This document shows, piece after piece, positions 21,297-55,370 of a DNA stretch of 64,000 nucleotides. The stretch comes from Balanoglossus misakiensis. Lineage: Eukaryota > Animalia > Hemichordata. A program made the position numbers and the translations under genes. Position 1 is the first letter of the stretch; each line of letters begins with the position of its first letter. The stretch spans positions 6,434,509 to 6,498,508 of the forward strand of contig CM082586.2 of NCBI GenBank assembly GCA_040954595.2, read 5' to 3'. A model generated the notes under the pieces. It was not told where the DNA came from and did not search any database. It saw only the letters and a program-made list of their open reading frames with translations.

Positions 21297-24200
21297 ATGG
21301 CGGAGAGGAAGGAGGGAAGGCACAGTTCGTCCCACTCGCGGAGAAAACATCGCAAACGCTGCCGGATTCCCGTGAGTTTCTGGCGTGCAGTCATTGCAGA
21401 ATGCCTCTGCACGTTCTTCTTCATGATCATCGTGTGCGCCGCGCACTTGGAATGGAATGGCGCTGGGATGACCGTGGTGGAAATCTCACTAACTCTTGGG
21501 CTGGCTGGTGAGTAGACACGACAACGTGTTGACAGTTGGGACTTTGCTAATGCAAACTTTGTCAGATCGCTAATGGGGGTCGCGTTCTCATCAAAGAATA
21601 GCTAGCTAAACGTTGCTAGTTTTCTCTGAAAGTGGTAAAAAAATTCGTTCTTAAGTTTTAACCAACACTTTTTAAACTTGTGTGAAGAAAAAGTAAAGTT
21701 GGGATTCCAGTCAAAGTGAAATGTACAAGGCTATTAAACTGTAGCAATGTAGATTTCACAGTTGCGCACGCATATTATAAGTGCGAAAACCAAGTCACTT
21801 AAATTCAACAGTATTCTGGGATCTTATTTATGCTTCGCTTTAAAAAAAAAAACCTATTCATTGCTTTGTAACAATGATTTGTTTCAATAGGGCTTCCCGA
21901 TTCACAGTGGCTAGTTCAAAATTTCGCAATTCACTAAAACAGCAAACATGAATAGTTTTAACTTCCGGAGCCGAAGAATAGCAGCAAGTCTTATTCATTC
22001 ATCTGCGATTGTAAAGGCATTACCCCTGAACAACCGTGTGACAGTCAACATTATTAAAAAGACGTTTCATCGCGAACTTGGGCCTGTCGTGTTGTCGTTC
22101 GCGAACGCCGCCAAGCAGAACCCCTCGTCGCGGCAAAATCTCAAAGGTGTTTTCGCTGAATGAAATGCGAGTGAGTGTTTATTGAAAGCGATGTTTGACC
22201 CATGTGCACGTGCGCAAACAGAACTCCGGTATTTGACGTGTTGAGTGAAGTTGAACAGTTGTCAACATGCAATGCATGCGTTAGAACCGTTGAGCTGCAG
22301 TTGTACATACTGTACATGTACCACGGCTTTCCGAACATCAATAACTACAAGCTTTTAAAGTTGTCTCGATCCACGCGACCATGCCCAGCTCCGAAATGCT
22401 ATGGGCCCCTGAAAGGATTACGTAATTGACACAGAGCCCACCCAGGGGCTTGAAAATAAATTTGTCATTCAAGTGTAAGCAAATATATGCAATAAAAGAA
22501 GCTGTCAGAAAATCGTTTTACAGCCTGAGAAAAAATATGACAGTGCTAAAAGTACAGTGTAATTAAACCATCTCTTTTCTATTTACGAGTGTCTATCAAA
22601 TTCAAAAGATTGCAACGTTAACTTTTGTCCTTCATGGATGAGTTGCCAATCAACAAAATAGTTTCTGACTAATGAAAAAACATTTATAATTGACCTGCGC
22701 AACGCTTGACTGGGTAAAATTGACATGGCTCTGAAGGTTGGTTTATATATATTTAACTATATTAAATTACAGAGGGCTATCAGCATGAGACTTGTGTGCT
22801 CTGGGCAAGTGATATATGAAGATTTATCTTTTATGAACGCCCAAGGAAATCAAACGACATGCAATAAAACTGACAAATTCAATAAATTTCAATTCTTCAC
22901 ACAAGAACGGCACATTCACAGTGTCCTTCTGACCCCACTTATATCAGTTGATACTTTCCACGTGTTTTCCATTCCGTCTAATCAAGCTAGAATGTCCGTA
23001 AAATTTGCTCCGTGATGTCTGCATGGCACAAACATTTCACTGAGGATACTTCCAACAATGTGCTCATGTATGTACAACACACACTGCACTAGAGGCAGGC
23101 TGTGTAGGAATTGGTCTGATTTTTGGCAAAATTCAATCTGATTGAAATCTGACATAATCAAAATCAGTCTTTTCACTTCAATCATATTGTGGTCTGTACA
23201 CCAAAAGTTACAACGACGCTTTAGGAAAACTTTTTTTAATTAAAAAAAAACGTGCAAAACTGATAAGACATCGCTACCCAAAACCCAGTGGCACAACAAT
23301 AAACAAGTTTCCTGTAAGTATAAACCACGAACAAATTATGGGCGTGATGTATGTGCCCGAAAACAGGCAGTGTTTTCAAAGACGCACAAAGGTTTAGATG
23401 ACCTGTGACACTGTGGGAGCAAAGGTCACTGCGAGGTCACATAAACAGTGCCACTCCACAAAGTAAGAAGTCATGTTATTTTTACAAAATTGACAAGTTT
23501 ATTGGCTTTCTTGTGCATTAGATCCATTCCATGTAATTGTAGGTTCAATGTTTTTGTGTCATCAGTTATTTTATTTGAATTTCAGTTTTTGTCTTTTGAG
23601 ATGGACACAATAATTACAATCATGTGTACCTATATGTATGTGACCCATCATAGATGATTCAAGTACAGACATATTGATAATCTGGGGAGTAGTCAAATAT
23701 GTACATTATGATGATATTGGGCGAATGTAATACAGATGGTCGACCTAAAAATGCCCAAACTGTACACTAAAAAGTAATTCTCAGTGATAGTTTCTGCCTG
23801 CATAAGCATTTGTGTCAACCCAAAGTAGACAGTCGAAACTCGCAGAGTACAATGGATGGGGTCGTTAATCAAAGGACAGGTGTTCCAGCATAGTGATACA
23901 AGGTTTTCTTTAGTCGTTGGGTTATTATCTTCCGGCAGATTTCACCTCTGGTCCACTTTGCCATCGCTAATAATGCCACGCTAGTACACTCTCATTATTT
24001 CGGCGTTGTTCGTATGTTCGGCACGTGCGAAACCTTCCATCTCATAAGTTTCTGAGCTCCATGTACAATGGATTTGGTCCGGCTGCGTGCATTTGGGGTC
24101 CCGACCCTGGTTCCTTCAGTTTATCCATTAGTCATGAAATTCCATTGTACCGATCGATGGCTGATCAAATCAGTCTCTTTTCAGTTTTAAGTGAGGGTTT

Positions 24201-27200
24201 ATAAGCTTGGCATCTGGTAAATAGCCCAAAGTTTCTGCTATGAATGTCTCAAAGCTGTAATGTACATGTGTGTACATGTATATGAGAAATCGGTATACTC
24301 AGTGCAGGAAACTTTTTTTGGTGGTTCACATCCTATAAGTAAAATGTCTCTGTTCCTCACACCACTCTGACCAGAGGGTGATGTCTTTACTAAAAATCTA
24401 AGCTTGGTTCGTGGCCACTAACACAGGTATGACTGCATGCCATGTAGCTGTAACAGAGGTGATGATGTAGCTGTCAGTGCTGAAAGGTTCAACTGAATGT
24501 AAACACCTCTATCTGGTTAATAGTTTGTGTAGTGGTTCTAGTGCATGTATGTGTCAAGTGGTGTAGACAGCAGATGAGGAGGGGGGGGGCAACCAGGAGA
24601 TATATAAGTGAATCCCCAAGCACCGGGCTGTGACCTCTCCACAATACAAAGGGGGGAGTCTTTTCTCCCGGTGACTGTGTCATCAAGACAGTGGCGGTGT
24701 TTACAAGGGAGACTTTTGTTTGGGTCATTACGCTAAACTGAAGTCATCTTCAAAGGTTGGTGTTTAACATTAATGGCCTTGGTGTCCCATACAGCAGAGC
24801 AGGTGCAGACGTCTGAATGGGGGAAACGCTCAGAGCAGTTTTTCTTCTTGCATTCCATGGCTGATGTCTCGTTGCGAATTTATGTGCATTTCACACAAGT
24901 ACTGTCTGTGTGAGAGAGAGTCCATTATGGAATTTATCCCCTGGCTGGAGCATGCTAGTCTAGCATCCAGTTGTGTTTTGTCCACTTTGATCCAAAACTT
25001 TGGAAGAAAAGTGGACAATTAAAACAGTGCTCAGTGTATAGACTTAAGATCATGCATGCTGATTGGCCTAATAATACCCATTAGTAATTAGCCTGTATAG
25101 TCTGCAAAGTGTTTGGAGTCTTTTTTAACATTTTTGCCTGATTTAACTTGCTGGTCGGTTAATGTGTCAGCTGAAGGTAACACACCGGTTCATGTTAACT
25201 AAACTCCACTCTACAACTTACTATTTGCCAGCTCTTCTCACAGCAGAAATTCTACTCTAGAATCCAGACATATGTCCCCCAAACACACTAGTCTGGATTC
25301 TAGACCATAGAAATCAGGACAACTTTCACCAATACAGTGCTATGCTAAATAACCACCCAGGGAAGTTTTCAAATTGGCCAAAGCGCCTGATGGTAATGAG
25401 CACACATACAGGGCTTTTATGGTGGATTGAAAGACTCCATCACAAAAGTGTGGCATTTGTAGTGTAAGGAACTGCAGTGTCTAATCCCCCCAGGGATGAG
25501 GGGAGCTGTTATTGTCCCCCCAAATTCCTCAAATGCCAGAAATACCCCCTCAGTTCTTAATCCTCCTTTCACACTAATTTCTTTGAACAAAAACGTTAAC
25601 GAATGAAGCTGAGGATGGCTAGGCTTATTTAAAATTTACATTGCAGTTATCCAAGAGTTTTACCATCATGAATTATCAGAGTACATAAAAGGTACCCTAA
25701 CTAGCTAATTTTGTCCTCCATGGAGAGTTAAGCAGCCAATATTTGTCTCCTACTGATAAATCTATAGTCTAGTAGCTGTTGTGAAAATCACTCAATAGCA
25801 GAGAGAAAACTTCCCTTGTATTTGATAAGAGGGAAATATTTATGAAAGACTAGAGCAGGATTCTGAGCGGTGTTCGGTTGTTTTGGCTGCACATTGCCGA
25901 TTGTTGCGTTATGTGGTTATAACTTTGCACTCTGCTGGGGCCATCTTTGCTCAGCAGAACCTGGGGCTGTGCTTGGGTCTTATGCAGGGTGGGTCGACTC
26001 ACTGGGAACCACATGTATTCATGTATTGACTGAAAACAGGCATGTCTTCACTGCGCAGTAATCACAGACATATTGCCATAAAGCCTGGAAGATAATGTAC
26101 TTGTAACGTCAAAAAAACATTGACTTTGTCCCTTTAACTTTGATTGTACAGTGTCTCTGGATTGCAGCCAACTTTAATGCACAACATCCGAGAGGCAGAG
26201 AAATCTCAAAGGAGCCTTGTTCATTCACAATACTTACAATACAATGCACAATGGACATTATTTATTATTTACATGTTCTGCTCCGCTTAATGTATCTTAA
26301 CTTGCTGTTGTTCGATGTTTGAACAATACGGGTTGTGTGATTGATTGATCGATTGATTGAAAACACCTTGGCACGTCAACAAAAGGGGAATACTATGCAA
26401 ACACGGCACAGACTGTAGAGTGGGAACTCATTGGTAATGTTAACCCTTGGAGGAGTTCTGGACATAATTCACTGATAATGAGAGACTTGCTCGACCAGAC
26501 ACAACTTGAAAAGCTGAACATTGATTGTTGAGAAAATCAATGTCTGTGATTTTTGGGTCTGTGAACTCGGAATCATTCTCGTGTATAGTATCTAGTCTGG
26601 TTTTGTCCGCTTCTGTCAGGAGTGCAGTTTTTCAGAGGTTTCAGATTTTGTTTATTCAGTCTGGCAAAACTACAGAAATGTAGGGTAGATTCTTATAGAC
26701 TAAACTATCAGTATGTGGTCTTTGTATTGAGACATGTATTTGACTGAGAACAGTCTCTGACCTGAACAGACTATAGGGTTTCAACGATTGCTATTTGCAG
26801 ATCACTTTTTGGTTTGTTTGGGCCCGGGCCATGGTATTACTTACCCACTCCACCCTCATTGTCCATGATCACTTACACGTGCTAAATGTCTATTTACCCA
26901 CAGGCCAGACTCTCGCCCCAAATTCAAGGTTTACCTTGAGAGCTTTTCAGGGGATTTATACTGTGACCGCGTTTACATGTATATGTATACAGAAAATTCT
27001 TGGCCAGCTGTCTGCTTGCTGTTGAAGAGAAAGTGATCCTTTTCAGCTGTGCGTTTGTGGGTTTTTTTGGTCGTAGTGTTTCTTTCTTGTTTTGTTGAAC
27101 CACTTTAATAGTCACTTCTTGTATCAAAAACTGGATATTTGTAGTTTTTCTGGAACTGTTCAAAGATGCTGGCTGTTGATCAGACCCCCGTTGCCTAGGT

Positions 27201-30200
27201 GATTGTAGGTCATATGCCGAACTCTGTAAATATTTGCGTGCGTGCATTCTTTCACCCCTGTTTGCTTCCCAGCAACATGCAGTTCTGTGGAGGGATTTGC
27301 TTGTTATTTTAATTGATCAAAGCTGTTCTGTCAGCTAGAGCTGTAGCTAGTACAACAAACAAGAGCTTTCCTACCTCCCTGGGCAGATGTCAAGTAGAAG
27401 TAGAAGTTTGGATCTTTCAGCAAAATATGTTTCAGTTCATGTGAAACTCAGTGATGATCAAAGTGTGTAGTCAGTGACTGGCTGATTGCATGCCCAAAGT
27501 TTTACTGCTATTTCAGCTGGATAGCTGAGGAGATCTTTCACATATGCGTGTATGTGTACATGTGATTTAGAAATCAGGAGTCATCGTTAGAAATTGTATT
27601 ACTGACTCTCAATCTCTAAGATTTGTCTGTACGGATATCACTCTTATGTCTGATAGGCTCTTTGCTCTTGCGACGTATTACTATCGTCCAGAGTTGGACG
27701 AAGCAAATTTATTGCTGCAGCAAGTAAAAGTGAACATGAGACCATAAACCACAAGCTGGTTCAAAAAAGAGCTGGTTGCTCTTTTGAACCTGTCCCGATA
27801 AACTCTCACCATCGCTGAAAGTTGGAAGATAAAGAACTGAAGTGATGATCACACATTGACCACCACATGTACCGCAATCAAGTAGTTGGGGTACCCATGA
27901 CAACAAGTGGTTTTGTAAGAAGCTTGGGCAATAGCATTCGTATGAATTTCAGAACGTGTCTTGAGGACAAAAAATTAATTTGTGTCCTGTAACTCCTCAA
28001 GATTTTTATTTTCTGTTTTTTTGCAGTGATTACACTCATCCAGTGCTTTGAGCACATCAGTGGAGCTCACATGAATCCGGCAATATCGGCCAGTATGCTG
28101 TTTGCCAGGAAAATCGGAATCCTGCGCGCCATATTCTACATGGTCGCGCAGTGTCTGGGAGCCATTACCGGTACAGCTGTTATGACCGGGTGAGTTGTAG
28201 GAGACGGTCGCCTGTGGCGATGAAATATTCATGTGATGAAGTCTGGTGACCACTTCATGAAATGAACATTATCGTTATAAACCAGGAAGGGGTTTGCTTC
28301 CTGTTGTGTCTGGATTTCTGAAATGGACATCAGCGTTATGACTGAAATGTACAATAACCTTGTGACGTGAATGCATCATTTCAGTTGCTCAGGTGCAATA
28401 CATACATATTGATTCTTGAGAATTCCAGAGAATGTGATTACAGTCAAACCTGTCTATAGTGGCCAGTCAAGGGACTTTCATACACTGGCCTTTATAGACA
28501 GGTGGCCTTTATAGACAGGTCAATTAATGCACATGTAAGTTGCACATGGACTGTAACATAGTGGCCACTGTATAGAGCTGGCTGGTATAGAGGTGGCCAC
28601 TAACACAGGTTTGACTGTATTTGTTTGATATACATGTACATGTACTTGTATGTTATTATTTGTATCTGACTGAGGATGCGTGTGACTACAGATAATTCAG
28701 CATGCTTCAATGACAGCAAAACTGAAGGAACTTCTCACATCAGCAAGAATTATTCAAAAGAGACTCAGCATGTGACATTGTCTGAAAAATGATTGACATA
28801 ATCATTAATTTTGATGATGAATATTATAAACTAGAACTAATTTTCATCCGCAGGTTTGCTCCGGGAGACATCCGAGGGAATCTGGGCATGTCCTATTTAT
28901 CCGACTTGGTTTCTCCGTTGGGAGGTTTCGGAGTGGAGTTCCTCATCACATTTATCCTGGCATTCACAGTCCTGGCATCCACGGATCCGAACCGGAAAAT
29001 TCTTGGCACGTCTGCGTTACCTGTGGGAGCAGCATATGCCATGAACACACTGTGGGCAGTAAGTACTGTAAAACACTTCATTTTCGCAAGTTGAAATTTT
29101 CGCGATCTCGAGAGAGGCAACTGTTTCGCAAGTATTAATTTTTGCGTTCTCTTATTTCATTCACTGCATCGTTAATAAAAAAAAAATTATGCGACTTTTA
29201 TTTTCACGCTATTTTGGCTCTCGCGTATTTGGCGAAAATTTGTTGCTCGCGAAAATAAAGTGTTTTACAGTACCATATACACACATGTTGGATTTCTGTG
29301 TACAGACGATGATAGGTTGCCTTGCGGTGTGCTGTGTGATATTGGGCACTGTTTATATGAAGTCTTTGACAGCCCTATAAACAGTGGCCAAGAAAAGAAC
29401 CATCTTGGTGTGGTGTTAAGGACATTTGTCCTTCGTTATATTATCAAATTGCTGTAATGTTTTGACTTGCTATTGCCCTTCTAAGAGGGTGTGGTCTGTT
29501 TAACCCTTTCAACACCATGGTTTGGTCCAAACCTGTTGTTTTCTGTGGTAATTAGCTGCAGCTGGACCTCTATAGTTGGAAATGGGGATGAAAAGAAAAG
29601 TTGAAAATCAATGAATTCTGGTCAAAAATGATCATATGATGCTTTATGTGTGGATAGATAGGTTACTGTGGAAACAAGCCATCATCATCACATAGAGTCA
29701 TCGCATGAAGAATTTGCGTCAGTGTTTCAGAATTAGCCATCTTCAGATGATTTCTTGTTTGCCGGAACGTTATGTTAAGAATTCATGCTGTCTCCACACA
29801 TGGTGTTCCAACAACTATAAACATGACCAACAAGAACATCAGTGGCTATTTATTTCACTCAGCACATCATCAACTTTGACCAGGGCTAGCAAAATGTGTC
29901 CATAATTCCTCAAGTTTTAGGCTGGCCCCAAATCTCCCCCTTTTATTAATTTGCTGGAGCTTATCAGAAATTTTACACTTATATCTATAAGTTGCTATAT
30001 TTAGCTGCACACTTCAGTTCATGTGACCCAGAGTTGGCCTTCATCTAAGGACACACTATATTGACTTTTCTCACAGAGATGCGTGCGCTGAGGCTTAGCT
30101 GAGCACAATTCTCTGGGAACAGCAAATAACTTTATGATCGTTATTATAATTTTATCATCAAGAGCAGTGGGGTTTGATTTCAAATGCTTGACCCTTGTTG

Positions 30201-33200
30201 TAATTGATCCGCATGCTTCAGATGTGGCCCCGATAGGATAAATTCACTCAAGCCCTGAGGCCTTCATACTGTGATTGATGTTGATAATTGATAGAAAACA
30301 TAAAAATGGTTACATTTTGTGCCGATAGTGTACAGTGAATTTCTTGTTCGAAGGGGGCAATAAGGTTCCCATGTGTTCTTCTGAACAAAATTTGGAACAA
30401 TTTAGAAAAAATACCGTCATTTTAAACAATATTGAAAAAATATTTTGAGAATAATATTTGGTGAGGCAATAACTTCATCCATACTAAGTTCATCTTGTTT
30501 GTTGTGACATGTTGATTGTTTCGTACATACATTTCTCAAGAAAATATGTTTTGTACATTTCTTGAGAAAAGCTCGAATTACCAAAAGATTCCAGACATGA
30601 TTCTTGTGACCTTGTAATTAGCTGTGTGTGTTTGGCATTTATTTTTATGTGTCTGAGTCACTGGAAGTAATTTAATCAACATTAAATGGGGGGGGGGGGG
30701 GGGAATGACCCTCTTTGATTTATTTGGGGTCGTAAAAAGCCTGGGTTACAATAATTCAAATGTGAGGACTTTCAACTTTGTCTTGTCTGGGTGTAAATCA
30801 CTGGGCAGGGATGGTTCCAACCAAGCATGGAATGTGTTGTTGTCCGAGTGTGCGCCATAGCTGAGGGGCCAATAGGGAACTTGATAGCCCGTCAAAGGCA
30901 TGGCAACAATATCACTGTGACATTGAGTAAATACCAGCTGTAATCATTTGTATCATTTGATGGTGTGTGATGCACTGATGAGGTACTGAGTGCTGGTGTT
31001 CTCACAGTTATACAAGTGTGTGTGTTGTCGATGCTGGCTGTTATACATGTAGTTGAGAAATGGCGGTCACTTCAATACCATAGCCAACTTGTCGTCACTT
31101 TTCACATAATGAACTTTTACCATATTTTTTTCCTAAAATTTTGATCAAGACCTACAGACAATGTAAAGTTGTGTCCACTTTGTCTAGAATTAAGGGGGAA
31201 AATACGGAAAATCGTGTGAAAATCACGTAAATGTTGCACCAAATTTTGACAGCAAATAATGTGGCGTTCAAAGGGTTAAGACAAGAACTTCTAGTGTCTG
31301 TTCGAAGAAGTTCAGCGGCCAATATGAAGGTGATCGTTTACAGTTGGTGTGTGTGTTTTGTTGATTGGGTCGCAGTGCTGAGCCCACAAAGGAGGCCTGT
31401 GTTTTGATGTGTGTTGACGATGGTGTTGCAGATGTTGTCCAGAAACTGTGCTGATATTGTTCCTGACAACGTGGTCCCCCAAAACGGCACAAAATTAAGT
31501 GCAGAGTCATGGCTGTCACAGATGGAAGCCATCAGAAGCGCTAATGGCCAAGGCACTCCATGGTGGGATATTTCTCAACCGCTTGCCTGAAAAGGCCGGA
31601 CCACTTCTGATCGTGCGGTCCTTTGGGTCTCAAGGGTTGGCTAAAATCACTTGTGGTCAACTACAAGTCTGCTTTGTTGGCACATAGGTGCTGCCATAGC
31701 AGTGGTTTGATTATAGCCCTGGACTGCATGTGTCTTAAAATGACCATGTGGTAGACACTTGAAGATCATCAAAACGCCCAAATCATCCAAAGCTCTCTCG
31801 TGTAGGTTAATAAAAATGGTGACTTTCCCATCACTCCCTTACAAAGTACATGTAGTCTGTTCAGCATTATCACCCTGGACAATATCATCAGAAAAATAAG
31901 GTGATCTTTTGTCCGTGTATTTTTAGAAAAAAAACCCTCCTAACTGTTGACAAGGAGATTTGTGTATACATGCCCTAATAGTTGTTAATTCAAGATTGTG
32001 TCCCAAGTGAAACTACACCGACAACAGTGGAAATTGTGTCGGGAACCAGCAAAGCGTAGAAAGCCTGTCCAGAGGAGAGTTAAAAGTCTCAAGAGAACTG
32101 CCCAGGTGACTGTCCCCGCTCAGATTTACAACCCTTAATGAAGCATACCTGGGTGGCCAGCCATTGAAGCATAGCAATCTACAATACAAGTTCATCAAGT
32201 GGCAACACCGTTTCACGTGGCATTGTACAGTACTGTACAGAAAAATTGTTTTCTTCTGATTGACCGACAGTCAGGGGCTATAACAATGGGTCGGCCATGG
32301 CTGTGTTCTTGACAGTGTTTCTGTAATAGTGTGGGTTATTGTTCATGTTGCCTGATGTTGTCTGTATCTGTATGCTAACGAGTTAACTCGCTGCAAGTGT
32401 GGCAATACACTAGTATATACTTCTGCAGTCATCACATGGCTGTTGTCAGTTGATCTGGTTGAGTTGTAGCTTCCACTGAAGTCAGAAACTCCACTGCAAA
32501 GGGATGGTTTGACGTGACCTCAAAAACGGGGTCAGCGTACGACACATGTTTCATAATATTGCTAATGTTTACCCTGGTGACATTTTATCACTGCATTCTA
32601 TCTGTACGATGTTGCCGTAGAAACTGACTGGGTGCCGGTTTATTTCCTCCAGTGCTCAGGTATACAATGTATGCACACACAGAAAATCTGGCTAGGACTT
32701 GATAAGATTGGGTACTAATAAAACAGCGCTTTTGTGGTAAACGTTCCAGTGATTCTCACAGTAAAAAGCACTACAACAAAGAGCTGTTAGGCCACTTTAT
32801 CATCACGGACCCATAGCGTTTCAGCCAGCCATTTCATACACCCCTCCCTCCTAATCTATTAACTTTAGCACCATTGCTATAATTATATGGCTTGTAATAC
32901 GGCCCGCATCTCGGGTCATGCGCCCGTGACCTCATCCGGCGAGGAGAGCATCAGTAATCTACTCTTGAAGGCAGATCTGAAGCTGTCCTGTGAAACGGGA
33001 TACACTCCCATACTCTTAACTTTGTTTCTTTATTAACTTTTATCGATAGCGTTATCGCACCAGAAATTCCTGGTGGATTAGCTTCGTACTCCCAGTCATG
33101 GCTGAGGGGTCTATGCGTGTCTGTAAGAAAGACTATCACCCGATTGCTTGGCAGTTATTAAATGGGGTCTTCCGGGGATGATAATTTGAAGTGACTAGAG

Positions 33201-41142: not shown

Positions 41143-44100
41143 ATGGGTATCAGCAAAAACTTGTGGGATACGAAGGATCTCTCCACGCTCGTCTTCTGGC
41201 GCGCCGTCGTCGGAGAGACCTTAGCGACATTTCTCTTCGTTTTCATCGTCTGTACGGCAATCCTGCCCATACACGGAGTGGTCAACAACGGCCCGAAGAT
41301 ATTGCAGATCGCCTTCGCCGTCGGCCTGGCCATCGCCACGCTCGTCCACTGCTTTGCGGACATCTCAGGAGCGCACATCAACCCGGCCGTTACCGTGGCG
41401 ATGCTGTTTACAGCCCGGGCAGGTGTTTTTCGCGCCGTGTTCTACGTCGCCGCGCAGTGCGTCGGGGCGATAGGCGGGGCTGCTGTCGTTTATGCGTAAG
41501 TAATCTCAGCGTGAGTTATTAGCAAACTTCAAATATTTTTGAACAAGTATAATTTATGTTTGTGACTTTTATCAGCAGTCACTTTGAGCTATGCTTTCCA
41601 CAGCGGTTCCTGTTCAATCCCAACATCAAGCCTACTTGTATCATAGTGTAAAAGCCAAACACGTCTTTTTGCGTTATTATCGTCATTTTGATTTTAAATT
41701 TAGAACGGTCCAGTTAAATGTGCTATCTGATGGGTATTCACAACCATATGACATGTGCATGTATTAACCTCTGTGGCTGTACATTTAAATATGAATAAAT
41801 TAAATACCCGGTAATAAAAGGATGCCACACCCGTTTATTCAGCCACAAATTGCAAGGGTTTACAACAACATGTGGAATGCGCACACGCGGATCTCCACAA
41901 ATTCAAAATGGTGTCGTTTGTCGACTAAGGATAAGGTGGAGACTGAAAATTTCCATCTATTAAAAGTATGCTAATAGCTTCAGCTATTGGGGGCTTTAAC
42001 ATTTGAATCCAGCCATCAAAGGTGCCCATATACATTTCTTGACTTCCTGATCCCTGCCTGACCTTATAATCTTTGAGTAAATCTCTCCCCCGCGGGAGAA
42101 ATTGAACCGCTTAACCGACACAGAAGAAAACAAGAGACGTGAATTGTGAAGGTTACGAAAATGTTGTCCTTTTTCCATCTTATGGGACGCTGTAATAATA
42201 CCACACCGGGACGACCAAATTGCGTTGCCTGTTTAGTGAACGCCGGACCAAGAGAAAAAAGTTCATTTGGATAAAAACACATTACGTGACTGTATGTTTT
42301 CTACAATTGTAGTCATGAAACGATTCCGCCACTGCCTATAATAGGGTAACTATGTGGCGATGTAGAAAAGTTTCTTTAATGTACAGAGACAAAAAATCTT
42401 GGGTCAGTTGAAGACAAACTATTCAGTAACGGAAAGGGTACGACGTACAGAAAAAAAAACAAGTCGGTCGACTAAACATCTCTGGTAGGTTAATGACCTG
42501 CCCGGGACAATATAAAACGTAAGACCACTTTCATTGTGATGCACAGAGTGAATTCGCTTTGGGTTTAATCAGGTTTCATTTCTTTAATCACCTCCGCGTA
42601 GGCGTTTCCCTTGTAAACTGAATTACATGTACTTGTAATTTCCTGTTTAGTGTACTTAGTTCGTGTTCAGCGTTTCAGACATGGATAGAATCACCCTTTC
42701 CATATATGCAGAGCTCGGTTTGCGTTCTGTCTGGTTCTACTGTCGATAGCTGGGCGTTGAATGGCTGCCAGACTTTTATATGTTTGGTAAAGGTTTGAAT
42801 GTGTTTGAAAATGTCCACTGGCGTGTCAGTTTTTGAACACCAATACAACAGGTGTTTCTGTCCACCATGTACGTATTCACGTGACTCGGAAGAAAAGTAT
42901 CGCACAATTAAAATAATATTAGAAACTGTTTACTTAGAGCGTACGTATTCAAGTTTTTGAGAAACCTAGCCACGTCATTACGTTCTCTACTTACTAGTTT
43001 CTACAATTTAATATTGATGTTTCTAACCGTGTCTGTCTGTCTGCTTTGCGGGGTTTTGGAGACCTCAACCACTTGTTTGATTTTGTCGTAGTTATCACAT
43101 GTAGGTTCAGTATTCATGCATTTTGTAGGAACTGGGTTCGGTTTTGAGTATTGAATATACACAAGAGAACTCAGGAATATTGTCACACAGCCCGTCCTTG
43201 GGGATAGGTCACTGTATACGAAATTCTCCATTGTGCACTGATTCTCGCATCGTCATGCCCCGAATAAGATCTCTGACTCAAATATTTCTCGGTGATCTAA
43301 AATACAAGCGTGTATTGCCACTTGGCTTTGTCAGGAGCTAGTCAATTATCACGTGCTTGACAGAGACGGCTCCGTCCCAAGAATCACTTGTCCGTAATGT
43401 GGGCCAACATTCTCACATGCCTGGCTGGTTATCATTCGAAGGGTTGTTGCGCGGTCACAACGGTGACTGTTAAAGGGCGACGATCGTCTCATGCGCATGT
43501 GCCAGACTCTGGTTGCAAAAAAATGTATACAGTCCGTGCCAAAAGGCCATGTGCTGTACTAAAAACAGACAAGATGGCGGCGACCATAGTCAGCGTCGGA
43601 GATCGTGAAATGACAGCAAATTGGGTGAAAAGACGGGACGAAGCCAAACTATACACAGTGCAATGAAATATGGAAGGGAGCGAAGGCAAAGAAAAGAGGT
43701 GCAGTTTCATGAACTATATTTTTACTGCAAAATTCACAAAGAAAGATACCCCGGGGGGGGGGGGCATTTAGCACACGGCGTTTGTTATATTAACATGGTT
43801 TATGGAGCATTCGGATGTTTATACGATTCATCTTATTTTATGTACAGGTTAACACCCCCGGAGGGACGTGGAAACTTAGGCGTAACTCTGGTCAACGATT
43901 CGTTAACTGAGATCCAAGGATTTGGAATGGAATTTATGCTCACATTCGTGCTGGTGTTTACCGTCTTCGCTACTGTAGACCCTAAACGCAGTCTGACAGG
44001 GAGTCCGGCCCTCGCCATTGGAGTAGCTGTCTTAATCGACCATCTGATTGGCGTAAGTGTCTAATATGTCAAATTCGTATTGTTACATTACTGTGGCGTT

Positions 44101-44156
44101 CTTTTCGCTGCTGATGGAGACAATGAAGATGAGGAGGAGGAGGAGGAGGACGACGG

Positions 44157-44206
<50 letters not shown>

Positions 44207-45219
44207 GTAGTGGTGATTTTGGTGGCGATGGTGACATTTTCTTAGGAACCATTTTTTCTCATTTTCTATTCACCTGAGGGCAGTAAAATGAACCCAAGGT
44301 GTACCCTCTGATCACGTATATTTCGAAGCTGCAACGACGAACGTAATACTGCTAACAATAGAAACACAGCCTCTGAGCAATTGTAAAGCTATAGCCTTTG
44401 TTCGTACACGTACATGCCCATGTCTCTTATCATTTGAACCATTGTCTATTAAATCCAACAGCAGCCGAGATGAGCGTGTAGGCTGACGTTCATCTCACAT
44501 TCTTATATAGTCCCGTGACTGCTTCCCACGCATACAAGTCATGATCGACTCGGTGTGCTAAACAGTTCGCTTTTTCATGAAATGTTGTAGGTGAATCTCG
44601 ATTCATACAGTTGTTGGGTCGATTGTAATTGCAAATTTTCTCTAGTGATAGGGCAGTCAGTCACAGACGGGGGGTGGGGGGTCACTCAGCGGTCACAGAA
44701 GGGCGCCCTTTATTGAATGTACATTTTGTTCGTCTGTAGATCACTTACACCGGTGCAAGTATGAATCCAGCAAGATCCCTCGGACCAGCAGTAATCACCG
44801 CAAACTATCAAAATTTCTGGGTGAGTGCGCCAGCTAGAGTTCACCTTTTGTTAACCTTTGTTCTCCACGAGCTGTACATGTACAGAACAAATATTTAGAC
44901 CGTGCAGTCTTAGTTTATATTAAACGTTGTCATTCCGTTAATTACAAAAATGGCAATTATTTGATTTATGATATTTGTTTTTAAATCTAAATTATGATAT
45001 TTACCCGTCCCCCAGGTTTATTGGGCTGGTCCATTAGCTGGCGGGGTGGCAGCTGGATGGTTGTACGTGCTCGTTTTCGGCAAAACGTTGAAGACTTCGG
45101 GAGATTCGTACGCAGACAAGAAGAAAGACGACAACCACACAATAGTGCACTATGGAACAGACAACGGTGCCTATGTGGAGTCCAATACACAGACGCCAGA
45201 ATACGACACACCTCTGTAA
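41143..45219 (+). CDS. Aquaporin 2 of cluster (AQP4-like; 4 exons, about 280 aa)
   Basis: Exons 41143-41495, 43848-44052, 44740-44820, 45016-45219 (843 nt). Motifs [39 protein letters not shown]. Ends YDTPL*. Confidence 0.94.
44128..44206. repeat. Compound (GAG)n/(GAT)n microsatellite in aquaporin 2 intron 2
   Basis: Direct reading of the sequence. Confidence 0.95.
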
Positions 45220-45855
45220 AACTGCTACGCCGCTTAAAGGTATAAAAGTACTAGTAAATGTATCTCACAAAGGGGCGTGTCTAAGTGTTTGAATGACCAT
45301 GTGACCAGGTGGCGCACTTTTTTTGCGGTGGTTAAATTTGCATACGTGACCGTATACCTCTATAGAAAATGATTTCATCTGATCGCATTTCTCAAGAATA
45401 AAACACAATTTGTCACATATATGGCCAGTATCTGAACGTACTGTATTCAGATAAAGGCTGGTCAGAATTTAAAAATCCAACAATCCATGCACTAAGCGCA
45501 TATATTCTACTTTGATTTTGTTTATATTAAAATGCTACAGTACAATTTCTTCCGTTGATGGTTGCGGCTTACTTTGAATGAAATAACTAATCTCTGAAGT
45601 ATTATTATTTTTTCATCCTTTATTTGCCATCATTCTTTTCCTAACATTATTATTGAATTTCACTCTCATGTGAAATATTAAAATAACCTTATCCTCCAAG
45701 TTCTTTTCCCGTCCAGAATCCTGGCAACACTACCACTGGATTTTCGGTCGTTCAAAGAGGCTGACGTCATATCTGTTTTCCATGTATTTTGTCTGTCGTT
45801 CACTTTTGAACATTTCAGTTACCATACTTAATATACCATTTCATATATTCGTTAA

Positions 45856-46268
45856 GGATGTACGCGCAGAACATAAACCGGAAACAGTGCGCGCCGGGTC
45901 TTTTTCGCATAGGATTACATTGAAAATTGCTAGAAAACAAACTTGTACTATTGTCATTTTCACGAAATTTTACACATAGCTCAGTCCAGCAAATATAAAT
46001 TCATTGGTCAAATAAAATATAGGGGTCACCGCGCTCTATTTTTAGATAAATTGCGTCAAAAATTTTGCCCATAGACAAACCATTGGTGAAAAATGCTGAG
46101 TCAGCAGTTTTCTTCTATTATCGACTAAATTCATGGCTCTTTATTTCAAAAACAAGCGCGGTGACCCCTATATTTTATTACGGATTTTCATTATACATAC
46201 AAAGGAGAATCCAAAAATCCACAATTAAAAAAAATGACAATACTTTCAATTTTACTGAACGTACACCC
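45856..46268. mobile_element. Kolobok-like non-autonomous element with an internal 24-bp inverted repeat
   Basis: TTAA-GGATGTACG ... CGTACACCC-TTAA. Internal AATAAAATATAGGGGTCACCGCGC (46011-46034) has its perfect reverse complement at 46156-46179. Confidence 0.75.
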
Positions 46269-48084: not shown

Positions 48085-51000
48085 TCAAAAGACGGTCGTG
48101 TTTGTCTCCTCGTTCATGTCATCCGGGGTCTGCGATTCCATTTCACTGAACGTCGCCGGCGCCTCGCTGTATATGTTCTCTGCTTTTGTGTGATTCGTCG
48201 CCGTTGCGGGCGTTGCTTCTGTCTTCATGGCATTCATTTCGACCGCTGGGCGGCGCTGTCTGGTAGTTTTGGGCGCTGGTGTTCCAAGTTTCCTGCCGAA
48301 GGTGAGGACGTACAGCCAACCAGCGACAATACCTCCAGCCAATGGTCCCGCCATGTACACCTGGCGAAGTAATAAGAACCAATGGAGTTAACACTGGAGT
48401 TAAACAGACCATGTTCCGAATTCCACGAGACCCTGCGAGATTTCGCGTGACTATGCAGTTTGTACGAAGACTTTATCAAAATTGAAACTTACCCAAATAC
48501 CATCGTATATCCCCATGACAATGGCAGGACCAAGCGTTCTAGCAGGATTCATACTTGCACCCGTAAAACCAAGCTGTAACGATTCGAATGCGTCGACTGT
48601 TACTGGCGATGATGAAATCGAATAGACAGAGGGGAGTGTAATTCGGACTCAAGAGCATATAACGGAAGAGCATACGCAATTCTGATTAACGGACAGACAG
48701 ACAGACAGACACAATGCAAAATCAGAGATACTGTATCCAGTACACTTTTACTGCACCTACCCCAATAAGATTGCCAACAATGACGGCCAGTCCAACGGGC
48801 AGACCCCGAATTCCTGTCAGATTGCGCTTGGCGTCGAAGGTTGCAAAGACAGTGAAGACTAAGAGAAACGTGATCATGAATTCCATGGCGAAGCCCTGAA
48901 CTTCCGTCACTTCTTCGTCTAATCGCGTGGCTCCTAGGTAACCACGCACCGATTCGGGCGACATCCTGAAATAACAAAGGAATGAAACTTTGATTTTATC
49001 ATTGTAAATTTTAAACAATGCGAATGTTTTGTCAAACAGCGCTGTGACAGCTGCATAACACATGGTTTTATTTGTAGTTTTGGTTACTCTGGTTAACGTT
49101 CAATTTCAACAGTATATAAAAAAGTAATATATGGTATTTTTTTCCGAATAATGTACTAGTTCATTCGACCCATGTGAGTACTGGTGAATGAATAGCCAGA
49201 GATCGTAATAGCGCCCTCCAGCGGTGGTTTGAATCAACAGGTGTTTGAATGCAAGATGAACGACTCGTTCGGTCCACAATGAATAAACGTTGTTTAATGG
49301 CTTAAGACGCCAGCTGAAATTGATCTTACATAGTAAAATGGGCAACACCCCCTGTACTCGGGTCTTAAAATTCCAGACGATGTCCCATAATATTTAACGA
49401 GATCAAATTCCGACACGACATTCACCTAGGCTTGGTCTCAGTTGTTTTCACCGACGGGTCGGGCTGTTGATAGCCTTTAGTCAAGGACTTTCGATTCAAT
49501 TCAGTGTTTTAATTGATTTCGATGTAGTAGTTTAAAATTGAGTCAGTGAAATGTCAAACACATATTGACAAGAAAAGCGACAAAAATTCGTCTTAAAAAG
49601 AGCTGCCGATCGTTCGAGTCCAAATGATGTTGGATTCGCTGTACAGCATAGCTCGATTAACCTTACACCTCGGATAGTTCAAACTATCGGGCGAAAGTGT
49701 GAACGACAACTAAGGATCAGTCAACAGGATTACTGATACAATAACCGTAGAGATGTAAACAAAGAGTGCCGCTGTAAACAATGACAGAAGTCTTATTTGC
49801 ACGACCCCAACTCACGGAAATTTTGGTTAACGATCCACTTCTGAATTTTTTACGGCGCTTGTCTGCTTTCACTTTGTAAACAAAACGCGGTGATCAAAAT
49901 TTGTTGTCCTTCGGCGAATTCATTAATTCTTGACCTAGAGTGACCGGCCTCGTCGAGTCTAGTGCAGGCGTAAGGAAGGCTTCCCAGTCTTGGCGCGTTT
50001 TGGATCTCATTGACGAAATTAGCTGTTTCCTGAACGCGATTGAAAACTTACCTTCAATCTTTCTGTAAACATTCCTAATATTATCAGAGATGCATGTATT
50101 TTCTGTCAATACAGGCATGCGGCTTACAATGGAGATAACGGTGACATCATTTCAAGTTCTCATTTTTATGTCTTCCAATTTTTGTTTTCCTTGGTGATGG
50201 CAAATACCCAGTCCGTTGAGTACGTGCTTGTATTAGTACACTTATAAGTACTTTGTTTTTCAACTCGGCCAAAGTGATGACATTTTATGTTTGGCGTTTT
50301 CGTGCGTGCTGGTAGTTTGCTATATGTCACGAAACACACCTTTCAAATTTAACCAGGAGCGACTTTTTGCCCCGAGTTGAAACAACTTTCTGTCTGTGAA
50401 TAGTGGTCAGTGTTCTGTTTATTTGATTGCATTGCAGTAACGAGAAATATGTGTCATATGCATGTTTGCAAATACCTCCGGCAGTATGTAGCCCTGGCAA
50501 CGAGCCAACATTTGTTACACTCCGAGAAGAACAGGAACGTCTTTACAAAATCGTTAGTACGCACGAGTAGCCAGTGTGGCCGACTCAGAATAGAATCATG
50601 CGAATAACGTAAGAGAAAGGCAAATAAATCTATTTTGTATACAAGCAATTTTGGTATCGTCCGGACAATTCTTGCAGGCCGTATCGCTAATCTCCGCTAT
50701 TCACAGTTAGTTTCGTTCGGGGCCCTGAATCAACAAGCCTGGTGTTTTTTTTTCACCGCTGTATGCAATGAAGTTAAATGCAGTGCAGCTGTTAAAGTGT
50801 GGGCATTGTTTTCGCACGTGAAAGTGTGACATTCCAATGATGAAGCAGATGTCAACCCGCGAATCGGGGTTGTGGTTATGGGCCAGTGACCATGAAAGCG
50901 ACAAGCGTCTCTCAATCCGTGAAATACAAACCTGAATTGTGTTAGATTGAAGGAAACTAAAGGGACGTAGAAAGGCGGAAACTCCAGGTCATGGGTAATA

Positions 51001-51432
51001 TAGTGAACGGGGAGTACTGTGTACAGAATGGGATCGATCGTCCTCGACGATGTGTTAGCTTATATACGTAATAACCGAAGGCACTTACGCAAACAGCACC
51101 GCCGCTCCACCGATTCCCCCGCCGCACTGGAAGACGATGAAGATAACCGCCTGGAAGACGCCGATTCTGGCTGAAAACAGCATCCCCAGCGTCGTGGCCG
51201 GGTTGACGTGGCCGCCGCTGACGTGCTCAAAGCAGTGGACCAGGACGGCGTAGGAGAACCCGGCCGTGAAGGCGGCGAGGAGGACCTCCTGCACGCCCAC
51301 GCCGTACGAATACCAGTGCAGGAACGACGCGCACACCACGAAGACGTAGAGCAGAGTCGCCAGGCACTCGGCCACGACCGCCCGCCAAAACGACAGTTTG
51401 GAGAGGACGTCGGGATCCCATATTTTCGCCAT
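48085..51432 (-). CDS. Aquaporin 3 of cluster (AQP4/big-brain-like; 4 exons, about 301 aa)
   Basis: Exons 51089-51432, 48761-48965, 48493-48573, 48085-48360 (906 nt). Motifs [42 protein letters not shown]. Ends NTTVF*. Confidence 0.94.
48404..48480. repeat. Short interspersed repeat (probable transposon end) in aquaporin 3 intron 3
   Basis: AGACCATGTTCCGAATTCCACGAGACCCTGCGAGAT... is the approximate reverse complement of about 62548-62627. A third fragment lies at about 59455-59504. Confidence 0.7.
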
Positions 51433-52506
51433 TGCGGTCGTTCCGACGGGTTGAGACGATACAAAGTTGACCCGAGAGAGCAAATGAGAGTGTGCGGAAC
51501 ACAGTGGTGTCGTATATACTCAGGTGCGCGTCACGGTAGACCTGGGGCGGTTATTTACACTGGTACTTAAAAGTGAAAGGCCTGGCCCATCTAGAACTTT
51601 CATTTGTTTACGATCCCCACCTATGTCCCCTTTTAAATTTTGCATAATATACAAAACTAGGACACGGTCTTGTTTCAGTCTATTCAAGAAATGGGGACTC
51701 GTATCATATTACTGTCTGCTCTTTGTGAAAATGCGAACATTTGTTAATGGAATGTATCCGGACTGAAATCGAACTGAACTCAGGTTGGCTTTGTGACCGA
51801 ACTGTTGTACAGTGCATGTTTACGTTTTGAAGAACTGCCACCAGTTGCAGACATGTGTGTAATAGAGGGAGTGTGGCTGACGTCAGGCCGATAGTGAATT
51901 ATTTTTTCGATGATGTGCGCAGGTGCATATGGATATGTATCATGACACATAAAACGTGTAGGTGAATAAAAATCTAATCGTCATATTTTTTTCATTTCGC
52001 TGGCCAAGCGCCTGACAGCAAGTGACATAAGAAACACACATTACAAAATCAAGACAGTGACACTATAGTAAAGTCTCACTCGATTACACCCAAGGTGGCA
52101 TAATGAACTGAGAAAATAAAACGGAGGGAGCTATAACCTTTGATAATATATTTTTGATTTTTCTATTCTGTGTATCCACTACAGTTTACTCCGCACAGCA
52201 CGTTGTCCGGTGTCAAGCTTGTCGCCACAGCAGACATCATGTCTAACCGGCAATGTTATTGTTGACAACTGAATTTTAGTCCGGACTCATTAAAATAGTG
52301 AAGTACTAGAAACAGCAACAGTTACAGCTTTTGTCCCTTTAAGAAAAGCAGACCCGACGAAAATAGACGTGCTTTGGGTGGGATACGAGACAATCAATTG
52401 TAGACATTGATTAATCTGAGAGATTGTGTAATACTTTATGGCCACGTGCACGGGGACTGGACAGATAAGATTCATGTTGCCTAACTGGCTCTGACAAGCA
52501 ACTTGG

Positions 52507-55315
52507 TCACAAGCCCGTAGTTTCTGAAGCCACGTTTATAGTGTTCGCTCTTCCGCTGTTCTCGTCTTCTAACGTGAAAGCCACGTTGTCATGGTTATCG
52601 ATCTCCGCGGCTACAGTGCCTCGCGACATGCCGTCGGTGCCGTCGACAAACTTGACGGGGCGGTCGTCGTTGGCGAGGTACTGGCCCTTGCGATCGTCAG
52701 GGCCGTCGCTTTTTTGACTTCCCGCATCCGCGGTCGCCACCTTCCTGCCGAACGACAGCACGTACAACCAACCGGCAGCGACACCGCCGGCCAAAGGTCC
52801 CGCCCAAAATACCCAATGGTCGTCGAAGAGTCCAGTGATGACGGCGGGGCCGAGGGTTCTGGCTGGGTTAATGCTGACGCTGGTATAGCCAATCTGCAAG
52901 AAAGGAGACAAGAATCATTACACATAATCATTATGAGGATCATAAAAAATAAATTGCATTGTATTCTCGTCTAGTGAAATCCCAGGCGATAGTTCTTATT
53001 GAGCTGCTACGTTTTTGAGTCTCTGTGTAAACATTGGCAATCAGAGAATCACTTTGATAAAATTTATATTTTTGAGATAATATTTCCGTTCGTCATTCAT
53101 TGCCCTGTTTCTCCGCTTCCTTACATGTTCCGTCACATTCCTTTGTCAGTCAGTCAGTCAGTCAGTCAGTCAGTCAGTCTGTCTGTCTGTCTGTATGTAT
53201 GTCTGTCTGCATGACTGTCTGTCTGTCTCTCTGTCTGTCTCTTAATCCCTTCACTTACACTCACCCCTACGAGGTGAGCGATCACTACAGCCACTCCAAT
53301 GGCAAGAGGCTTGCTGCCGCTGATGGCATTCTTCTCGTCCACCGTGGCGAACACGGTGAACACCAACACGAAGGTCAACACAAACTCGACGCCGAAAGCC
53401 TGCATTTGCGAGATGTCTGGGTTCAAGGCGTTGGCTCCTATTGTGCCGCGTACGCCCTCTGGTGTTACTCTGAAATAGGAGAGAATTGTAACCATAGTTA
53501 CAAGACGTTTTGCACCCTTACATCAAGCAGAGTACTCACACACGTACGTGATCGCCTGAAGGGATCTACTCGATATCATAATCACTTGTAGAAAATGTTG
53601 ATTTTACGTTGGGGGACTGCTTAACAATTGAAATTAAAACGATATTGTAATTTTGATCAAGCTTACTTATAATTCACACTTATGGATTTTAACCAGATAA
53701 CCAGACTCAGATACGAATTACATAAATAAGTTCGCATATTTTCGGTATGAAAACGGCTATAAAATAATTTTTGAGCCGCAGCACACTTATTAATAAAAAA
53801 CACCATTTTCATACCATCCTAAATGTCGGGTTCAGCTCAAAACGTAAATATCCATTAATAATCAATATCACATTTATAAATAAATAAATAATTTGATCCT
53901 GTTTGTGTAATGACATACTCCCTTCATAAATAAAAGTGCGCTGATAAATAAATAATTATATCTTATATGTGTTCCGGAAACTCACTTCTCAACACAAGGA
54001 TAAGCTCTTTCTCTGGTACATTAGTACATGTGTAGTACGAGTAGTACAATTTTGAAATTTATTATAACTTACTATAAAATTACCAGCCTCCATTCTCCGT
54101 AAAATTGAAAGTTCAGGATCCGGAAAAATCCGGCCGGATGAGCGTGCTATAAATAGGTAAACCTTGAAATCTTACCAGTCGGTAAACAATGTAATGTACG
54201 CGGTATAGGGTCGGTATAGTTGGGGAAAATTAAAAAAAAATAGTACGTCTGTCTAAGTGTGGATCTGTTTGCTTGTCAAATTTCGCATCAGACAAAATTC
54301 TATTCTTGCAAACAGGGCGCGTTAGTGTGGTTATATGAGGTTATTACGAAAATACCGCAAAGTATGCACGAGGACATTAGCGCTGAGTATCGCCCGACGC
54401 GTAGCGGAGGGCGATGCGCTGCGCTAATGTCCGAGTGCATACTTTGCGGTATTTTCGTAATAACCTTATTATTATACATCTTACATCTCCGTTAGTTCTT
54501 GTGTTGCATGTTACTTGGCTTTCAAAACGCCCAAAATGCCGATACAATCGATCGAAAACCGCTCAGTTGACTCAGTGAGCAGCCATCTTTGTTTTTTGTT
54601 TACGTGTGCGCACGTGCGTTGGAATGCGGGCGCCTTGAAACCGTTCGCATAACAGCGCATACCTGTACACGGTGAGTTTGGGGCGCCTTGAAACTAAGGC
54701 TTATTTAACGCGCGTTCCGTACGTACCGTTCCGTACGGCTTTTTATTGCACGCCAGAATCTATTGTTCTCGGCACTAGATGTATAATAATGGCGTTTATT
54801 TTACTGCCATTTTCCTATTACGCAACAAGACTGTCGTCTCCATCCGTCGTAATCAGTCGCGTCGCTTCTTCAATTGTTGAAGATCAAAAGCAAGAAAGGC
54901 AGTTAAAGATCACCGTACAGATGGGTCTGACTGAAGCTACTTCGACTTACCCGTGAACAAGAGCGGCTCCTGCGATGGCACCAGCACACTGGGCGATCAC
55001 GTAGAAGACAGCCTTCAGTATTCCTATTTTCCCCGCGAACAACATCGCCACCGTGACGGCTGGGTTGATGTGGCCTCCGCTGATATCGCCGAAGCATTGC
55101 ACGAGGGTCGCGATGGCCAGACCAGCGGCGAGGGAGATCTGAACCACCGTCGGCGTCTTCTCGTCCCACGAAATCGTCGACGACAGCATGAAGAAGAGAA
55201 AGAGGAAGGTGGCCAGCAGCTCGGCGGCCACGGCTTGCCAGAAGAAGAGACACTTGTAGCAAGTGATGTCGCACAGTTTTGCAGAAGTTGACTGCGTCTG
55301 TCGTTCGCCTGCCAT
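52507..55315 (-). CDS. Aquaporin 4 of cluster (AQP4-like; only 3 exons, about 318 aa)
   Basis: Exons 54951-55315, 53265-53469, 52507-52893 (957 nt). Motifs [39 protein letters not shown]. Ends ETTGL*. Confidence 0.94.
53146..53241. repeat. Compound (CAGT)n/(CTGT)n microsatellite in aquaporin 4 intron 2
   Basis: Direct reading of the sequence. Confidence 0.95.
54338..54790. mobile_element. Hairpin-plus-inverted-repeat element in aquaporin 4 intron 1 (possibly a non-autonomous Crypton-type element)
   Basis: 129-bp near-perfect hairpin at 54338-54466 with loop region CGACGCGTAGCGGAG. Followed by ATTATTATACATCT (54468-54481), whose reverse complement is at 54777-54790. No target duplication seen. 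Confidence 0.6.
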
Positions 55316-55370
55316 GATCGGCGACGCTACTGGCTCGAGATCTGCGCACCTGGTACCGCGCAAGCTGTTT

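Follow-up and report, generated by a model that had tools for sequence, protein, structure and literature searches.

A tandem cluster in the acorn worm Balanoglossus misakiensis, lying within the 64-kb stretch of DNA analysed here (the window), consists of four intact AQP4-grade aquaporin genes, none of which has the F/H/A/R filter of vertebrate AQP4. On the basis of their sequences we lean slightly towards a reading in which genes 2 and 4 would be water channels, gene 3 would pass water, urea, and glycerol, and gene 1 would be an older channel with a likely partly plugged pore. Each gene has exactly one open GT-AG model that agrees to within three bases with the boundaries set by eye, with the ATG of gene 1 at 21297 and that of gene 4 at 55315:

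21297..34900, forward strand, gene 1, 299 aa, five exons (21297-21507, 28027-28189, 28854-29058, 34108-34188, 34661-34900)
41143..45219, forward strand, gene 2, 280 aa, four exons (41143-41495, 43848-44052, 44740-44820, 45016-45219)
48085..51432, reverse strand, gene 3, 301 aa, four exons (51432-51089, 48965-48761, 48573-48493, 48360-48085)
52507..55315, reverse strand, gene 4, 318 aa, three exons (55315-54951, 53469-53265, 52893-52507), the last intron being absent

The models contain no internal stops and both NPA motifs noted in the original prediction, spaced 115 residues apart, and overall identity between the paralogs is 41-58%. Gene 1 has an additional phase-1 intron 16 codons ahead of NPA1, and ACOX and TRP-like genes neighbour the cluster. 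These intact open GT-AG models rule out pseudogenes, and mis-assembly is ruled out by contigs of two DNA runs (from one sample, possibly the source sample), which cover 30/30 bins of positions 41000-56000. A tblastn search of the 64-kb window with nine aquaporin queries detected no further aquaporin exon. Comparison of gene 3 exon 1 with longer proteins returned no matches among 3125 candidates, which is attributed to the search mode.

All four proteins are classical AQP4-grade channels and not aquaglyceroporins. They possess the six TM helices, two NPA half-helices, and Arg after NPA2 that define the MIP/aquaporin family, and ESM Atlas placed them in generic MIP clusters only. A model of the gene 1 ortholog from Ptychodera flava (P. 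flava; pLDDT 83.7, eight helices) has AQP4 (3gd8) as its best solved fold match, with an E-value of 1.3e-17 and an rmsd of 1.6. The top PDB matches of gene 4 exon 1 are AQP4, AQP2, and AQP5 (E about 1e-30), as against only 1e-8 to 1e-9 for AQP3 and GlpF. The Asp after NPA2-Arg and the aromatic LE1 residue of aquaglyceroporins (Glp) are absent from genes 1-4. Froger positions P2-P5 read T/F/Y/W in gene 1, S/A/Y/W in gene 2, T/A/Y/M in gene 3, and T/A/F/W in gene 4; this is the water type (S/T, A, Y/F, W), with minor deviations in genes 1 and 3. The four genes resemble vertebrate AQP4 in their two NPA motifs, conserved Arg, and best solved sequence match, but differ from it in filter composition. 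Vertebrate AQP4 is their sister in no tree, and a grouping of genes 2-4 with AQP4 gives an AU p of 0.092.

The filter residues (TM2/TM5/LE1/LE2) are L67/T190/A199/R205 in gene 1, V60/H183/A192/R198 in gene 2, A57/N180/A189/R195 in gene 3, and A64/H187/V196/R202 in gene 4; gene models and alignment agree here with the L/T/A/R, V/H/A/R, A/N/A/R, and A/H/V/R originally predicted. The original prediction had also allowed that a proper alignment might place an aromatic residue at the TM2 site, and none is found there. In HMMER alignments the Ala of gene 4 and that of gene 3 take the place of the filter Phe in the solved structure of human AQP4 (3gd8). NPA1 follows the TM2 site at a distance of exactly 20 residues in 69/69 aligned rows, so there is no register shift. 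A Phe does occur two residues before the TM2 site, but it is likewise present in five of 30 rows with a normal filter Phe; as these carry both residues, a displaced filter Phe is ruled out.

Orthologs of all four genes with identical filters are found in P. flava. The closest relative of gene 2 is P. flava XP_070533268, and its V/H/A/R is shared by Saccoglossus XP_002736465 (Aqp4L5); P. flava XP_070533267 is the ortholog of gene 3, with the same A/N/A/R and both Tyr residues; and gene 4 has as orthologs P. flava XP_070533265 and -66 and Saccoglossus NP_001158487 (Aqp4L4), A/H/V/R occurring in both genera. L/T/A/R is present in P. flava, Glandiceps, Amphiura, Patiria, and Anneissia. Glandiceps and a second P. 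flava copy deviate, with G/H/A/R and A/H/L/R. Five P. flava paralogs (XP_070533265, -66, -67, -68, and -72) lie on one 40.3 Mb contig, and to judge by the accessions their order is probably that of the window reversed, that is, the same arrangement. The acorn worms' own F/H/A/R genes are on other contigs (rows P0187 and P0037). Unlike Eglp-bearing insects, acorn worms also retain tandem aquaglyceroporins, and there has therefore been no gene replacement of the kind seen in holometabolous insects. Saccoglossus kowalevskii Aqp4L4 and Aqp4L5 were catalogued by Finn et al. in 2014 (PMC4245216), and that paper counts five aqp4-like genes in the acorn worm; we place Aqp4L4 in the gene 4 subclade with A/H/V/R and Aqp4L5 in the gene 2/3 subclade with V/H/A/R. 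Table 1 of the same paper gives only F-N-I/H-L/A-S/R for basal deuterostomes, and the filter states of the window are missing from it. Our literature search, which covered that paper in part, found no published description of these acorn-worm filters and no functional data on the two Saccoglossus channels.

Three whole-protein trees were built with the filter columns removed, from rows hand-picked among 355 fetched proteins; echinoderms, lancelets, and pterobranchs are thin or absent in this sample, which holds one Aqp14 row and no Glp, named AQP8, named insect Bib, or named Eglp or Mglp. Row P0180 (Saccoglossus "aquaporin-4-like") was omitted as a mis-modelled form of P0167 without NPA2. Genes 2-4 form a clade in all three trees (support 100/99, 100/98, and 100/99), which among the rows sampled holds acorn-worm sequences only, and the gene 1 clade, which brings gene 1 together with channels of echinoderms and tunicates, is supported at 100/95, 100/99, and 99/95. 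The deep branches differ from tree to tree, in whole-protein and half trees alike. The window genes fall outside the Drip/Prip-type group in all three whole-protein trees. Gene 3 stays within the clade of genes 2-4 in both half-trees (97/84, and a 98/89 subclade), which rules out a chimera whose first half is of gene 1 type.

The original prediction treated the cluster as an independent radiation of solute-permeable channels. The radiation stands for genes 2-4, which are in tandem and acorn-worm-only in the rows sampled; for all four it is rejected by AU tests (p 0.0185, and p 0.0049 in a second test), because orthologs of gene 1 exist in echinoderms and tunicates. The missing TM2 aromatic and the Aqp14-type TM1 residue common to all four, together with their physical clustering and shared intron sites, would suit a single radiation out of water-specific AQP4, and one tree that unites the gene 1 clade, Lingula, and genes 2-4 at 81/82 leaves room for a common, much older ancestor. 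In that same tree, however, the cluster lies outside a 94/89 group that holds vertebrate AQP4/1/0/5 and the acorn-worm F/H/A/R genes, and genes 2 and 4 keep a His, with the mutants F77A and F56A being solute-tight; we consider it unlikely that all four are solute-permeable products of one such radiation. A comparably low probability attaches to the opposite reading, in which redundant duplicates tolerated drift in their filters and all four are plain water channels. Odd filters are indeed common in invertebrate AQP4-grade rows (crab V/H/A/R, centipede A/H/S/R, urchin N/L/A/R, Lingula M/I/A/R, rotifer A/C/A/R), and the Glandiceps and second P. flava copies vary. Drift sits poorly, however, with the conservation of the same filters across acorn-worm families, and of L/T/A/R across two phyla, despite paralog identities of 41-58%, and with the effect of His loss on AQP4 and Prip.

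AQP4 with the single change F77A lets through neither urea nor glycerol (both 0; PMC6937295), while F77A/H201A gives 0.37 for urea and 0.08 for glycerol; loss of Phe alone in AQP1 (F56A) confers no urea or glycerol permeability. Loss of His alone turns AQP4 and Prip into glycerol channels, and the AQP4 H201A/S and Eglp data identify His as the gate. Kitchen et al. found filter composition to be no predictor of glycerol permeability across channels. Genes 2 and 4 are predicted, with fair confidence, to be glycerol-tight; for these two, with His kept and F77A tight, the solute permeability originally proposed is not supported, and it is retained for gene 3. By analogy with F77A/H201A, gene 3 would be the best solute-channel candidate, with Phe and His both gone, and we think it rather likely to be permeable to urea or glycerol; none of the mutants considered carries Asn at TM5 as gene 3 does. 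We propose that in the gene 2-4 lineage the TM2 Phe would have been lost and its place taken by a larger residue on TM1 (Val, Met, Leu, or Ile), and that the His still opposite the Arg would keep glycerol and urea out of the channels of genes 2 and 4. A later loss of His in gene 3 would then have let small neutral solutes into its outer filter, while further down the pore Tyr29 and Tyr61 likely slow their passage.

The TM1 site (AQP4 S52) is Val46, Val36, Val33, and Met43 in genes 1-4, respectively. Among 67 of the 69 rows scored (the other two being incomplete sequences), this site is G/S/A in 28/29 rows with a filter Phe and larger in 31/38 rows without one. When kinship is counted, 3.5 of eight independent pairs agree with this covariation and none oppose it, which is not significant (p 0.125). 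Summed TM1, TM2, and TM5 volumes, from a table of residue volumes, are 433 for gene 2, 405 for gene 4, 423 for gene 1, and 343 for gene 3, against 403-432 in most F/H channels and 395 in Aqp14. In all four, the Val or Met on TM1 likely takes up the room left by the missing Phe. Gene 1 Tyr186 occupies the AQP4 V197 site, and Tyr29 and Tyr61 of gene 3 the F48 and I81 sites; these three sites presumably face the pore, as helix periodicity suggests. A literature search on AQP0 Tyr23 found nothing. A four-residue filter overlooks a likely compensation by the larger residue on TM1 and by the new Tyr residues one helix turn away.

The TM1 site is Val30 in the aligned Astyanax Aqp14, matching the published number of the fifth Aqp14 filter residue (PMC6906440). 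Aqp14 is likewise AQP4-related, with a non-aromatic TM2 site, TM1 Val, and in some cases TM5 Thr, and in vertebrates it passes water, urea, H2O2, glycerol, and an ammonia analogue; unlike genes 2 and 4 it has no His, and its LE1 is Gly or Ala (PMC6906440). By alignment, the non-aromatic five-residue filter with TM1 Val is found in genes 1 and 3. The single long-branch Aqp14 row joins no window gene. Since Aqp14 passes solutes despite its TM1 Val and its volume sum, gene 1 could too. Gene 3 fits the route described for Eglp/EglpL (PMC4518291, PMC12135271) and malacoglyceroporins (bioRxiv 2022.07.25.501387), AQP4-grade glycerol channels that arose via TM5 His loss and tandem duplication, although the Eglp TM5 residue is given, in the passages covered, as Ala, Ser, Val, or Ile and that of gene 3 is Asn. 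An uncharged residue replaces the TM5 His only in gene 1 (Thr) and gene 3. Descent from pancrustacean Prip, as for Eglp, is not indicated for genes outside the Drip/Prip-type group, in trees with no named Eglp row.

Gene 1 would have diverged before the hemichordate/echinoderm/tunicate split, and its pore is likely narrowed by the Leu, by Val46, and by Tyr186, much as in models of Big brain (Bib), where tyrosines partly block the channel; louse Bib passes neither water nor urea. We slightly favor poor permeability for gene 1 on this sequence-based comparison. As in Bib (PMC4539701, PMC5513457), gene 1 has Tyr at the V197 site and gene 3 Tyr at the F48 site, with small TM2/TM5 residues and a larger TM1 residue. 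A more specific and distinctly tentative reading makes gene 1 the deuterostome ortholog of arthropod Bib, a non-water protein acting as cation channel or in adhesion and lost in vertebrates. The gene 1 clade shares eight diagnostic columns besides the TM5 filter site with Bib and three with genes 2-4, and an aromatic residue at the V197 site occurs in 21/229 anchorable proteins (from the 355 fetched), 13 of them Bib-type, eight in the gene 1 clade, and no others. A C-terminal-half tree joins the gene 1 clade with Bib and Haliotis-type channels at 96/87, a grouping compatible with an AU test (p 0.42), and in the tunicate gene 1 orthologs a long tail extends 230 and 259 residues past NPA2. However, gene 1 and Bib group in none of the three whole-protein trees (which hold no named insect Bib), and with the Tyr column removed Bib joins mostly unnamed or molluscan long-tailed channels at 100/98. 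Those of the latter that were scored keep F/H and Val, and the Tyr may therefore be convergent after His loss. Bib is also described as arthropod-only with a very long tail (PMC4539701, PMC5513457), while the gene 1 tail is short (56 aa), and gene 1 has Phe in TM1 where Bib has Tyr. None of the papers listed in one literature search on these filters mentioned big brain. The gene 1 subfamily, with L/T/A/R and the TM5 Tyr, ranges over acorn worms, starfish, brittle stars, crinoids, and tunicates. That it is an unnamed deuterostome counterpart of Bib lost in vertebrates, and that gene 3 is a glyceroporin which evolved independently in acorn worms, is possible as a combined reading, though we hold it with considerable doubt.

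Comparable filter remodelling is already known from Eglp, Aqp14, Mglp, and Bib, and the surprise is moderate since the phenomenon is known and some of these genes were catalogued in 2014. The cluster provides a natural filter-variant series on one scaffold, in which His is retained or lost, Phe is missing, TM1 is filled, and Tyr has moved in; this allows one to test whether His alone is the solute gate and whether a residue on TM1 can make up for the absent Phe. Should gene 3 pass glycerol, a deuterostome invertebrate would join the insects, branchiopods, snails, and Aqp14 as a further case of repeated co-option, and if gene 1 is the Bib counterpart, a supposedly arthropod-only channel would date to the bilaterian ancestor.

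Six-frame scans and exon reading gave a single open GT-AG model for each of the four aquaporin genes, whose products share 41-58% pairwise identity. Introns 38 codons past NPA1 (phase 2) and 8 codons ahead of NPA2 (phase 0) are common to all; gene 4 is without the last intron and gene 1 has an additional first intron.

Features of the window (filters as TM2/TM5/LE1/LE2)
21297..34900, + strand: aquaporin gene 1, 5 exons, 299 aa, L/T/A/R
41143..45219, + strand: aquaporin gene 2, 4 exons, 280 aa, V/H/A/R
48085..51432, - strand: aquaporin gene 3, 4 exons, 301 aa, A/N/A/R
52507..55315, - strand: aquaporin gene 4, 3 exons, 318 aa, A/H/V/R
about 1000-18300, both strands: several tandem acyl-CoA oxidase (ACOX) genes, Pfam matches at 2628-3008 (-), 14505-14855 (+) and 17855-18244 (+)
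57256-58140, - strand: 295-codon open frame, rich in Glu/Gln/Leu and coiled-coil-like
about 59000-63100, - strand: ion channel exons, Ion_trans matches at 59684-60526 and 59024-59266

The channel exons, whose S3-S4 region contains a long insertion, are, judging from motifs, presumably TRP-like; the 295-codon frame, which had no match in a Pfam search, may be the tail of this channel gene. High-copy repeats, at depths hundreds to thousands of times background, occupy introns and the gene 2/gene 3 interval (43500-44000, 45500-46500, 54000-55000).

The spliced models carry the very filter residues of the original prediction. An alignment with the solved AQP4 structure bears out the TM2 site, which lies 20 residues from NPA1 in 69 of 69 aligned rows. 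This constant spacing, and the Phe at -2 also present in five of 30 filter-Phe rows, exclude that Phe as the true TM2 filter residue.

The best matches of all four are acorn-worm proteins, including Saccoglossus NP_001158487 (59% identity to gene 4), Glandiceps XP_077990485 (79% to gene 1) and proteins of Ptychodera flava (76%, 69% and 78% for genes 2-4; 92% over core columns for gene 1). By these matches the window comes from an enteropneust, nearest to P. flava among named species yet distinct from it. P. flava has five paralogs on one contig, in what accession numbering suggests is the window order reversed; Saccoglossus and Glandiceps each have two same-contig paralogs. The F/H/A/R aquaporins of P. 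flava and Glandiceps lie on other contigs than these paralogs.

Trees were built from rows picked by hand out of 355 fetched proteins, with filter columns removed: 69 rows under LG+G4; 47 rows under a mixture model, leaving out 22 redundant, long or nameless rows, with Aqp14 one of those left out; and 52 rows with Tyr and TM1 columns also removed. The single independent radiation originally proposed holds for genes 2-4, which form a clade with acorn-worm orthologs (100/99, 69-row tree), but not for all four, as gene 1 falls with echinoderms and tunicates (100/95). Both clades recur in the other two trees. An acorn-worm-only clade of all four was rejected by AU tests (p 0.0185 and p 0.0049) made after tree inspection, the tested grouping being that prediction's own hypothesis. 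The deep links differ from tree to tree: gene 1 joins Lingula and Dimorphilus in the 69-row tree (88/95), and Bib (Big brain) and Haliotis-type channels in a 49-row C-half tree (96/87; AU p 0.42, not rejected), while in the 52-row tree its clade, Lingula and genes 2-4 are weakly joined (81/82) with Bib adjoining (78/88). Grouping genes 2-4 with vertebrate AQP4 was not rejected (p 0.092). Long-tailed channels from sources including Haliotis (P0291, P0326, P0313, P0042) group with arthropod Bib (100/98, 52-row tree), hinting that Bib relatives may exist outside arthropods; the three scored have F/H/S/R.

L/T/A/R is unchanged in P. flava, Glandiceps, Amphiura, Patiria and Anneissia, and tunicate members of the gene 1 clade have I/C/S/R and I/S/S/R. 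P. flava repeats V/H/A/R, A/N/A/R and A/H/V/R, and Saccoglossus the first and last of these; departures are a Glandiceps G/H/A/R and A/H/L/R in the second P. flava gene 4 copy. Unusual filters are frequent in further invertebrate rows too, and the pattern as a whole is therefore no rarity. Saccoglossus XP_002733505 (P0017, Aqp4L3) has S/V/A/R and is sister to a Glandiceps F/H/A/R gene (100/96), which would make it a separate, additional loss of Phe and His within acorn worms. The available part of a published survey counts five aqp4-like genes in acorn worm, names Aqp4L4 and Aqp4L5, and has a filter table without the window's filter states (PMC4245216). A literature search limited to non-subscription papers found no description of these filters, and none of a deuterostome Bib.

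All ten proteins of the genes 2-4 clade finish in Thr-x-hydrophobic, which we take to be a class I PDZ-type motif like the SSV of AQP4; the remaining tail is divergent (last exons 45016-45219, 48085-48360, 52507-52893), with a QTP motif kept in five of six gene 2/3 subclade proteins. These shared ends suggest scaffolded, polarised placement.

Among 16 TM1 positions compared against the TM2 residue, the one 11 residues past the conserved Glu (AQP4 S52) tracks it (rho -0.75, 65 rows, uncorrected for kinship). Of 29 rows with Phe, 28 have G/S/A there, and a larger residue stands in 31 of the 38 without Phe (V46, V36, V33 and M43 in genes 1-4); independent pairs ran in the same direction but were too few (p 0.125). 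In gene 3, as in its ortholog, Tyr occupies the AQP4 F48 and I81 sites, the latter aromatic in four of 229 scorable proteins. At the F48 site AQP0 carries a Tyr that limits flux. One turn below the TM5 His site is gene 1 Tyr186, a position aromatic in 21 of the 229, every one Bib-type or of the gene 1 clade. We take all three sites to line the pore.

In published mutant studies, AQP4 F77A gave neither urea nor glycerol flux, H201A gained glycerol flux, and F77A/H201A passed both (PMC6937295); loss of His turns Prip and AQP4 into glycerol channels, and entomoglyceroporin (Eglp) closes once His is restored (PMC4518291, PMC12135271). By these data genes 2 and 4 are probably water-selective, and gene 3, with somewhat less assurance, is predicted to be solute-permeable. 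Kitchen et al. describe filter residues as a poor predictor of glycerol flux (PMC6937295). For gene 1, a part-plugged pore like that of Bib is narrowly favoured. It could instead be a polytransporter like Aqp14, whose Val30, modelled as a fifth filter residue (PMC6906440), aligns with the AQP4 S52 site. A normal fold is predicted for the gene 1 ortholog of P. flava (model pLDDT 83.7; best structural match AQP4 3gd8).

Taken together, the four-gene cluster is a real, conserved feature assembled from at least two lineages; one member is a good solute-channel candidate, and another belongs to a deuterostome subfamily without a name that is worth following.
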